Of a stretch of DNA of 21,616 bases, positions 6,001-9,000 are shown piece by piece (position 1 is the stretch's first letter; every line of letters begins with the position of its first letter). This DNA is from a virus. Its lineage: Duplodnaviria; Heunggongvirae; Uroviricota; Caudoviricetes. Position numbers: made by a program. The DNA lies in IMG/VR virus record IMGVR_UViG_2541047867_000011, positions 1 through 21,616 of that record; one strand, 5' to 3'.

Positions 6001-9000
6001 CCTGTGTTGCATGCAATAAATGATAAACATTTACCGCAAATGAATCAGGCTCCAGACAAATGCCTTCGTAATTATCTTGCTGTGAGGTTGTTTCTGTCAT
6101 TGCTCCTGAAGTGCATGCGAGCCTGTTTTTGACAATTCTCTTTTCTCTAATCACTATATCGGCAACATCTATTGCCTTTACAACCTCCGGGAGAAGTTCC
6201 GGCTTTGTATAATCAAAGTCATCAACATGGAGAACAGTTATGTTTTCGAACTTTTTCATGGCTTCCTCAGCTGACTTATATGTTCTGCTATATAGCGAGT
6301 CTCAGAAGTGTTTTCATATTGAGACTGTTTCCGCAATGATTGATAAAAATGTTCGCATGTACCTTGAAGGGCGAAGCGGCGATTATGTCACCATTGGTAT
6401 TGGTTCTTCCGCAGAAGAGCTTCGCGAGATAAGGGGCAAACTTGTTGAGATGCGTCATGGTGTTGCTGCTCCTCACTTTTTGGTTGCTCCGGAGGAGTAA
6501 CCTCACCAGTTAACAGCCACATCGGATCGCAGCCAAGAATATTTGCCAGTGGGATAAGCATACTGATAGTTGGTTCATACTCTCCGCTCTCCCACTGGAT
6601 GATAATTTCTTCATCGAGATCGAGCAGCCTGGCGAGTTCGGCGGTTGTTAAGCCGCAGGCTTCGCGTTGGGTGCGAAGACGGTTGTTGATTGCAGAATTT
6701 TTGTTCTGTAAAAGCATTGCTGACGATAGCTTTCTGGATATGCTATTTGTCATATCCCATGCCAGTCCTGCGCATGACTCTATATCGCTAGAGAGCGTAG
6801 CATCAGGTGTTGCTTTTGCTATTAGTGTAATGAGGCTGCCGAGGTTTTTCAGTTCTTCGAGACAGTCAAGAGTTGTAGCTTTATTGATCATGAGATGATA
6901 CCTCAGTTACGAACTTTGTTTTATGGTAACTAAGGTATCAAGGCGTGGCAAGTGATTTTTGATACTTTGGTTTCTTTTTGTGTTTTGTGTCTGGTCAGAA
7001 AATATCCCACCTGGCATCAACCACAACACCTACTATTTCGCAATCATTGTCCATTTCTATGATTGGATATTGTGGATTAAGGGGCTTTAGAAACGCCTTT
7101 CCCATGTCAGAAATATATTTTTTGAATGTTGCTTCATTGGTAGATTTTTTTCTGGCGATGACGTAACACCCTGAAAAAACTTCTTTATCTGGGTTGACAA
7201 GGATCGACATTCCTTCAGGAAATGTTATTCCTACGGGCGAAGTCATTGAGTCTCCGTGCACTTCCAGCCAGAACCCCCTCTCACCAGCGTATTTTACAGA
7301 ATGCCTCCAATTATCCTGATCATACATGTTGTAGTCATCACCAGAAGTTGCGAATAATCCTGCCTGAACCCAGTTAATTACAGGGTAAGAGTGTGCTGTG
7401 TCTCTCTGTGGGCAGCTCTTAACATTATTTTCCCAATGCTTATCTTTTTCATCTCCGTTCTGAAGCCACTGCGGTGAACACCGCAGTGCAGCTGCAACTT
7501 TAAAAAGGGTGTCACCGTTGAAACTTTTTGTAAGGCCTTGCTCGGCTTTACTTATTGCAACTCTGGTGACCCCAGCTTTTTTAGCCAACGCATCTTGTGT
7601 TAACCCAGCTTTTTGCCGTGCGTTGATGAGACGTTCACCTAAAGACTTCATTTTTCTTCTCCTCTCATGGCTGTTGATACTAAAGTAACAGAATTTCTTG
7701 ATACTTTGGGTTCCTGTGGTTAACATCGTTGGATAACAAAGTATCTGGTGTGAGACTAAAGAATGACCCTTTATGAAATATTAAAAATTCAATTTAAAAC
7801 CAATGCCGCTATTGGTCGCAGGTTCCCAAAGAAAGGAAGGCCTCGTGGCAGTCAAGGTGTTGGAAAGTGGAAAACGCGAGGTGTTCCGGAGGATGTTGCC
7901 ATTCTTTGTCATCTGGATCCGAGCATTCCATATACACACCCAAGTCTAGCGAATACAGAAGATGACAAGCCCACAGGAGACCAACAATGAACACCGCAAT
8001 TTTTAACGGCAAAGCATCCATGACCAGCGTTGAGATCGCAGAGCTGGTGGGAAGCCGACCAGATAGTGTTAAGAGAACTATTGAAACACTGGCTAAAAAG
8101 GGAATCATCCAATTTCCACAGACTGTGGAAATTGAGAATAAACAATCACTTGGGCCTCGCCGATTTTCTAGCGCGTATGTATTCGAAGGTGAACGAGGTA
8201 AGCGCGACAGCATCATTGTCGTCGCACAGCTCTGTCCTGAATTCACAGCTCGCCTGGTAGATCGCTGGCGCGAACTGGAAGAACAGATCCGTAAGCCAAT
8301 GAGCGAAATCGAAATGGTTGCCGCGATGGCTCTTGAAGCCGTTCGCCAACAGAAACGGATCACTCAGGTGGAAGAAAAAGTCAGCCACGTTGCTGAAACA
8401 GTCGAGCAAATTAAAAAGGGCACTATTCGTGAGGGCTATGCCGGATATCGCCAACTGAAAGCAAAAACCGGTTTGTCAGATGATAAATGCCGCAATCTGG
8501 TGAACGCCTATCAAATTCCTACAGACACACATGAGTTCATGACGCCAGCGTCTTTTTTATCGTCCGCATTTGCTCACATCCAGATTATGGTGGGCTGGGC
8601 GGGGGCACCGAAAGGCTCGCCGGTCTCCGTTGACGCCGGTACTGCGAACCCTGTTCAGTCTGCCACCAGTGAGTTTCGCAGCTCCGGTGGTGGAAGTTTT
8701 CCACAGTCAACGGAGGCTGCCATCATGGCTACGATCCCAACCCTCACTCAACCTGAAATTGCCATCGTTGATGGTCAGGCTGTTACTTCATCCCTGGCTG
8801 TTGCCAACTTCTTCTCCAAGCGTCATGACGATGTACTGAAAAAGATCCGCACGCTTGAATGCTCCGCATCATTCACTGCCCGCAATTTTTCGGTGAGTGA
8901 TTACACCGATTGCACAGGCCGCAAACTACCTTGCTATCAAATCACCCGTGATGGCTTCGCGTTCCTTGCTATGGGCTTTACTGGCAAACGTGCAGCCCGG

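Follow-up and report, generated by a model that had tools for sequence, protein, structure and literature searches.

Putative lambda-type operators flanking the cI gene in the immunity region of a phiP27-like Escherichia coli prophage

What are the short related repeats that lie on both sides of the cI repressor gene in the viral DNA IMGVR_UViG_2541047867_000011 (IMG/VR; 21,616 nucleotides, the whole of which is called the window below)? An earlier note on this DNA had read them as the left and right operators (OL and OR) of a lambda-like switch, with PL and PR as its early promoters and with the promoter PRM. The window is a phiP27-like Escherichia coli prophage, and the locus is an ordinary lambdoid immunity region with a new operator specificity. 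We consider it probable, from the analysis described here, that the repeats are six operators, three in OL and three in OR, of a lambda-type immunity switch.

Six imperfect dyads around a repressor gene

The 12-mer TTGATACTTTGG is present as exact copies at 6959-6970 and 7698-7709, and the related half-sites that had been reported with it were recovered at the same places: AGGTATCAA at 6933-6941 (an inverted TTGATAC), TTGATACTAAAGTAAC at 7674-7689, and CAAAGTATC at 7737-7745 (inverted GATACTTTG). The repeat unit is better defined as a 14-bp imperfect dyad, GATAC-N4-GwwwC, whose ideal form is GATAC-N4-GTATC. The window holds six such copies, three to the left of cI (sites F, A, and B) and three to the right (sites C, D, and E); the earlier note had listed five pieces and missed the copy at 6897-6910. 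Each site consists of a near-invariant GATAC half, usually preceded by TT, an A/T-rich 4-bp centre, and a degenerate GwwwC half. Site C is nearly symmetric, scoring in both orientations, and overlaps weak candidates for PRM. The coordinates of all features are collected in Table 1.

Could such repeats be a chance similarity in T-rich intergenic DNA? Window-wide, the 12-mer with up to two mismatches is not enriched (3 matches against 2.05 expected), which agrees with a chance origin. This reading is contradicted by several other counts. An exact word of at least 12 nt common to both intergenic regions arose in 13 of 5,000 dinucleotide-preserving shuffles. The window has 11 copies of the heptamer TTGATAC where 2.6 are expected, a four-fold excess, and none of 100 shuffles reached 11; six of the 45 copies of GATAC in the window fall within 214 intergenic bases (binomial P = 5.5e-6). 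The strongest test against chance is the cross-prediction between the two sides. When a weight matrix was trained on the OL sites alone, D and C were the top non-training positions of the 21,599 in the 21.6-kb window, scored on both strands; the matrix trained on the OR sites placed B and A at the top in the same way. Leave-one-out matrices gave rank 1 for five of the six sites and rank 4 for site E. Chance is also contradicted by the constraint on the site cores and by the conservation of the sites in 69 related loci, both described below. On the cross-prediction and the shuffles we rejected a chance origin, to which we attach practically no probability. Further operator copies, for example near the antirepressor or the late genes, were sought as well, and none in the window scored above 11.7 bits.

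The gene between the two clusters is a true homologue of lambda cI. Its product matches Pfam HTH_3 (helix-turn-helix, HTH; E = 1.6e-14) and Peptidase_S24 (E = 3.2e-22), and its alignment with the full-length lambda repressor 3bdn (E = 9e-34) spans residues 12-215, covering the HTH, the hinge, and the S24 domain. Read directly, the translation contains a QAG cleavage-type motif, the GDSM serine, and the FKK lysine. The HTH is nearer to those of 434 Cro (E = 7e-9) and P22 C2 (E = 1e-8) than to that of lambda cI. A longer open reading frame (ORF) reaching 7726 was rejected because GAGGAG precedes the ATG at 7651 and the RefSeq annotation takes the identical start. The protein is 44.5% identical to the repressor of phage 21 (over 97% of its length), about 40% to P22/L c2, and about 36% to 933W-type cI. 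Among its relatives there is a gap between records at least 90% identical and all others, which are below 60%; by this gap, the phiP27-type cI constitutes an immunity type of its own.

The 75-aa protein encoded across OR from cI gave no match in Pfam (even at E = 10), NCBIfam, or the PDB sequences. Its structure model has a Cro fold, and it is classed as a predicted Cro-type protein solely from that modelled fold. Within the HTH-coding part of cI itself, at 7557-7614, we also noted a 25-nt direct repeat (GCAACTCTGGTGACCCCAGCTTTTT and GCATCTTGTGTTAACCCAGCTTTTT; 76% identical, 33 nt apart), which is probably a coincidence of coding sequence.

Conservation and co-variation of the sites with the repressor

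The segment 6300-8000 is 95.6% identical to the Shiga toxin (Stx) phage phiP27 of type Stx2e, the identity to several converting phages of types Stx1a and Stx2a is about 86%, and the phiP27-type immunity module is carried by the Stx1a / Stx2a converting phages LC567819 and LC567842. The segment was found in 331 of 5,426 complete E. coli genomes, and its location was chromosomal every time. In the RefSeq annotation of E. coli JKHS016, the left end carries integrase, excisionase, and an ea22-type left arm; the centre carries, in order, a 167-aa helix-turn-helix protein, a 218-aa LexA-family protein, and a 75-aa hypothetical protein; and the right part carries genes for Rha and Ash, for replication, and for a Q antiterminator. 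To judge by this gene order, from integrase to Q antiterminator, the region is the immunity region of a prophage with lambdoid organisation.

We took loci with relatives of cI from viral and genome collections, and defined the conservation set as the 69 fetched loci whose cI is at least 85% identical. A site was called where the score reached 12 bits or more no further than 130 bp from cI on either side. All 69 loci have exactly three such sites on each side of cI. Loss of the repeats in prophages with the same repressor, which had been named in advance as the observation that would speak against operators, did not occur. The remainder of the 69 loci, 332 kb in all, contains seven scattered matches of 12-13 bits at inconsistent positions.

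Constraint is concentrated in the sites themselves. In the comparison of 24 OR and 28 OL sequences, all distinct, the variable columns number 22 of 84 in the site cores versus 74 of 91 in the spacers (Fisher P = 1e-13, a generous value, as the compared sequences are related and column statistics overstate their independence). Within the GATAC half, only 2 of 30 columns vary over the same sequences, and the contrast between core and spacer is plain in the alignments. Perfect dyads exist among the relatives, with site E reading GATACTTAAGTATC in Stx phage LC567842 and site B reading GATACTAAAGTATC in locus L069. In site F, 13 of the 14 core columns are invariant over the 28 distinct OL sequences, with one position differing in loci L064 and L065. 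This site covers roughly +6 to +19 of the predicted PL transcript and overlaps the GAGG ribosome-binding site of the next gene, which encodes an XRE-type HTH protein.

Where the repressor type differs, the operator sequence differs with it. A Serratia prophage (L085) has a cI that is 51% identical, with the recognition helix SRMAISK in place of the TRVAISK found here, and its sites are of the form TAAAC-N4-GTTTA. Three of them are located between cI and a Cro homologue, the other three downstream of cI; its OR and OL have a 14-mer in common, and one site lies in the spacer of a TTGAAC-17-TACAGT promoter. Two more distant relatives, L072 and L082, have repeated words of their own on both sides of cI. 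The same co-variation is seen in the heteroimmune phages PhiR49_2 and Stx2_14040, which carry the XRE HTH domain behind a different cI and Cro: they contain no GATAC-N4 sites, and other words are common to their OL and OR.

These comparisons bear on the possibility that the sites are read by the neighbouring XRE-type protein and not by cI or Cro. The HTH of that protein is related to those of P22 C2 and DicA, and its gene abuts OL. However, PhiR49_2, whose nucleotides are 100% identical over 6300-6678, carries the same C-terminal part and HTH of the XRE protein together with a different cI and Cro, and it has no GATAC-N4 site above 11.4 bits and none in OL. The Serratia prophage, for its part, has the layout of three sites on each side although no XRE gene lies at PL. 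We rejected the XRE protein as the reader of the sites on the lack of GATAC-N4 sites in PhiR49_2 and Stx2_14040, and regard it as very improbable in that role. Since these two phages lack the sites despite their XRE HTH domain, the sites, as far as the comparison of sequences goes, follow cI and Cro.

Promoters, the proposed switch, and the first gene of the left operon

Promoter-like -35/-10 pairs overlapping the repeats, as the earlier note had claimed for both sides, were found for PL and PR in a consensus promoter scan, and their key bases are conserved. PL reads TTGCCA-17-TACCAT on the minus strand (6951..6923), and PR reads TTGATA-17-TAACAT on the plus strand (7698..7726). Transcription would start near 6916 (PL, minus strand) and near 7733 (PR, plus strand).

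Table 1. Sites, promoter elements, and genes of the immunity region, by position in the window. Promoter elements and starts are predicted; ranks are among non-training positions.
Feature	Coordinates	Strand	Sequence or size	Site centre relative to start	Leave-one-out rank	Remarks
OL site F	6897..6910	+	GATACCTCAGTTAC	+12 of PL (downstream)	1	Inverted repeat with site A
OL site A	6926..6939	-	GATACCTTAGTTAC	-16 of PL (core)	1	In PL spacer and -10; conserved
OL site B	6961..6974	+	GATACTTTGGTTTC	about -51 of PL (upstream)	1	Holds the 12-mer
OR site C	7676..7689	+	GATACTAAAGTAAC	about -50 of PR (upstream)	1	Closest to cI; conserved
OR site D	7700..7713	+	GATACTTTGGGTTC	-26 of PR (core)	1	Over PR -35 and spacer; holds the 12-mer; conserved
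OR site E	7732..7745	-	GATACTTTGTTATC	+5 of PR (downstream)	4	About -1 to +13 of PR
PL -35 hexamer (inferred)	6946..6951	-	TTGCCA			Promoter scan; TTGC invariant in relatives
PL -10 hexamer (inferred)	6923..6928	-	TACCAT			Overlaps end of site A; ATGGTA invariant in 28 distinct OL sequences
PR -35 hexamer (inferred)	7698..7703	+	TTGATA			Consensus half of site D; promoter scan; invariant in relatives
PR -10 hexamer (inferred)	7721..7726	+	TAACAT			Promoter scan; TAACAT, TAATAT or TACAT(T) in relatives
PRM -10 candidate (speculative)	7677..7690	-	TAGTAT (7682..7677) with GTATCA (7704..7699), or extended -10 TGtTACTTT (7690..7682)			
cI repressor gene	6995..7651	-	218 aa			N-terminal HTH and C-terminal S24 self-cleaving domain
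Cro-like gene	7763..7990	+	75 aa			First gene of PR operon; divergent from cI across OR
XRE-type HTH gene	6388..6891	-	167 aa			First gene downstream of PL; HTH at aa 72-126; N-terminal ~70 aa without assigned function
A/F inverted repeat	6896..6940	-	15-nt arms, 93% complementary			

The arrangement suggests the following switch. A cI dimer would bind the 14-bp dyad through its 434/P22-like HTH, and the Cro-like protein would, by analogy with lambda, bind the same six sites. In a lysogen, cI dimers on A/F and on D/E would occlude RNA polymerase from PL and PR, with the upstream sites helping. RecA-stimulated (SOS) self-cleavage of the S24 domain would then free both promoters; PR would give Cro and the early right operon, and the first gene expressed from PL would be that of the XRE-type HTH protein. 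What was observed is the sites, their non-random occurrence, their conservation and change with the repressor, the promoter-like hexamers, and the protein families; the binding itself, the start points, the order of occupancy, any cooperativity, any looping of OL to OR over about 0.7-0.8 kb, and the way in which cI is transcribed are inferred.

Besides the relatedness of the compared sequences mentioned above, several points weigh against so complete a reading. Site E is the weakest by leave-one-out ranking, and its left half is variable; the conservation of site F may come in part from the ribosome-binding site that it overlaps. Successive sites are spaced 29, 35, 24, and 32 bp apart, and the C-D pair (24 bp) alone resembles the cooperative pairs of lambda. 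As cI and Cro change together in every comparison, the sequences do not distinguish whether one of them or both read the sites. PRM was not found on the minus strand of OR in a standard scan. A relaxed scan returned 7-of-12 candidates only, both placing site D on the -35 region, and none was adopted; the TG and TACTTT of the candidate region are invariant in relatives, but they are also part of site C. Because there are only these weak candidates, overlapping C and D, positive autoregulation of cI in the manner of lambda is unsupported. Lastly, a full-text literature search turned up no data on binding or on transcription in the phiP27 immunity type. The proposal of OL/PL and OR/PR of a lambda-like switch is supported by the homology of cI, the cross-predicted sites, their retention in all 69 loci, their change in the Serratia prophage, and their absence from the heteroimmune phages; for its PRM component no convincing promoter was found.

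The XRE-type protein matches Pfam HTH_3 (E = 3.8e-11) and has an XRE/DicA-like HTH. It corresponds over its full length to PHROG 4739 (unknown function) and matches PHROG 4836, a 'CII-like regulator', with E = 1.3e-40; its gene has the same coordinates in the RefSeq annotation of E. coli JKHS016. With a conserved promoter and three operators directly in front of it, the gene is best read as the first PL-driven gene, and it is very probably transcribed from PL. The earlier claim that this holds rather than co-transcription with cI is too strong, as there is no terminator between the two genes.

The alternative is that the XRE gene is rex-like, being transcribed with cI by read-through in the lysogen and so (also) a lysogenic gene. 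Both genes lie on one strand with 103 bp between them. In a scan of 6892-6994, the minus strand showed no terminator-like hairpin from the cI stop (6995) to the XRE start (6891); its absence is conspicuous, as four loci with other cI types (L085, L072, L082, and L121) have a clear hairpin and T-run directly after cI. However, the 103-bp gap, with its conserved -35/-10 pair and three operator copies, has the look of a separately repressed promoter, and three bound repressor dimers could impede elongation. A read-through RNA would moreover carry a hairpin between A and F over the XRE ribosome-binding site (-20 kcal/mol), and in heteroimmune phages, including ones with a terminator behind cI, a homologue of the XRE gene likewise comes after OL. 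On balance we regard a rex-like role as unlikely. The stretch compared for terminators was 6892-6994 here and 3160-3215 in L085. The phiP27-type group has no such terminator, and within this region its sequences are most prone to indels between the cI stop and site B.

The relation between sites A and F raises a separate question, namely whether their inverted repeat is mainly structural, either as a hairpin in RNA that governs translation of XRE or as a palindrome in DNA recognised by another protein. The two sites, inverted copies, differ at 1 of 14 positions and are by far the closest of all site pairs. In a read-through RNA they would form a 15-bp stem (-20 kcal/mol, z = -5.6) that buries the XRE ribosome-binding site; for an RNA initiated at PL, in which the 5' arm is missing, the folding energy is -5.3 kcal/mol (z = -0.7). 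Three variants are found in relatives, all single-sided: two remain compatible with pairing through G-U wobble, and one, in L018, disrupts the pair. No compensatory double change in the stem was seen in the relatives, which is not evidence either way on its own, although a mainly structural role draws no support from it or from the L018 variant. Each arm, taken alone, conforms to the 14-bp consensus of the four other sites, and matrices built without that arm predict it; the OL sites of the Serratia prophage have no such hairpin. We therefore think a mainly structural role improbable, and favour the reading of A and F as operators, with which a structural role could coexist.

In such a coexistence, operators A and F would double as a translational gate in RNA: read-through RNA would be silenced, and RNA from PL, which starts in the hairpin loop, would be translatable. 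Because the phiP27 group has lost the terminator that relatives keep after cI, we propose that it may discriminate post-transcriptionally between lysogenic and lytic expression of the first PL gene. Any function of the A/F hairpin is speculative, however, and we hold the gate to be improbable.

The XRE protein is itself mosaic, the joint lying close to 6678 (aa ~71). Over the HTH and C-terminal part, it is 92-94% identical in phages other than PhiR49_2. Its N-terminal ~70 aa occur only with phiP27-type cI (including L069, whose cI is 86% identical), and an unrelated domain of ~85 aa is found behind a different cI. This would be explained by recombination with a joint where the domains meet, or by a function of the N-domain that is specific to the immunity type; that the N-domain travels with the cI type hints at an immunity-specific partner. 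A likeness of the N-domain to the first PL gene of the Serratia prophage or to the N-domain of the PhiR49_2 homologue was considered and dropped, as BLASTP gave no alignment. An 86-aa ORF on the plus strand (6240-6500) converges on the XRE gene, with an overlap of 113 nt at the 3' end of that gene. The ORF has a match in PHROG 6104 (E = 1.4e-49); a related ORF, L09, is annotated in phiP27, and RefSeq JKHS016 carries no annotation there.

Further into the PR operon, an ORF at 7987-9276 (429 aa) contains an Ant/Rha-like N-terminus, a Pfam Phage_ASH domain (aa 174-257), and a Phage_pRha domain. The Phage_ASH part overlaps a plus-strand match to the Rfam C4 antisense RNA RF01695 at 8583-8670 (66.5 bits; gathering score 45), and in E. 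coli JKHS016 the same region is annotated as separate Rha, ash, and Rha genes. The combination suggests an antisense-RNA/antirepressor module like immI of P1/P7 in the PR operon, and an 'Ash' protein call near 8583-8670 may have an RNA gene underneath it. At 18541-19057 on the plus strand, tRNA genes Met-CAT, Arg-TCG, and Arg-TCT are followed by the small RNA STnc100 (131.8 bits). This cluster lies downstream of the Q-antiterminator region, where Stx phages have tRNAs upstream of their toxin and late genes.

Significance and comparison with known switches

The full-text literature search returned no description of phiP27-type operators; the 2002 phiP27 genome paper lay outside that search and may mention the repeats. 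The present analysis provides a testable operator map for the phiP27 immunity type, comprising the consensus GATAC-N4-GTATC, six sites, and the positions of PL and PR. The strength of the repressor-operator interaction sets the rate of spontaneous induction and hence of toxin release. From the map, homo- and heteroimmunity among phiP27-type prophages can be predicted, and reporter and induction assays can be designed. One specificity is thereby added to a well-understood class, and the view of how such switches work is unchanged.

The likeness to lambda is extensive. In both, a homologous cI lies between two tripartite operator clusters built on one imperfect-dyad consensus, and each site pairs a consensus half with a non-consensus half. 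The operators overlap divergent early promoters, and a small gene for a Cro-fold protein comes first in the PR operon. In contrast to the 17-bp TATCACCGC-type operator of lambda, the site here is the 14-bp GATAC-N4-GTATC, and each promoter has one site downstream of its start. For want of rex genes, OL and OR are separated by only about 0.7-0.8 kb: rexAB are absent, as is a terminator, between cI and OL (6892-6994). The first PL gene is N in lambda and that of an XRE-type HTH protein here.

In overall form the sites resemble the 434 operator, a 14-bp dyad whose outer bases are conserved and whose centre is not contacted. The HTH domains of the 434 and P22 c2 repressors are detectably similar to that of the cI described here. 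Their half-sites differ from GATAC, being ACAA..TTGT in 434 and part of an 18-bp ATTTAAG-type site in P22.

The Stx phages 933W and H-19B share the host and lifestyle of this prophage. Operator number varies among them, with three OR but only two OL sites in 933W and four OR sites in H-19B (PMC8065619), whereas here there are three per side. Phage 21 has the closest named classical lambdoid repressor. Relatives with about 46% cI identity, such as L072, likewise have repeated words on both sides of cI; in L072 these are of the ACTTAAGT type, and, unlike here, a terminator follows cI.

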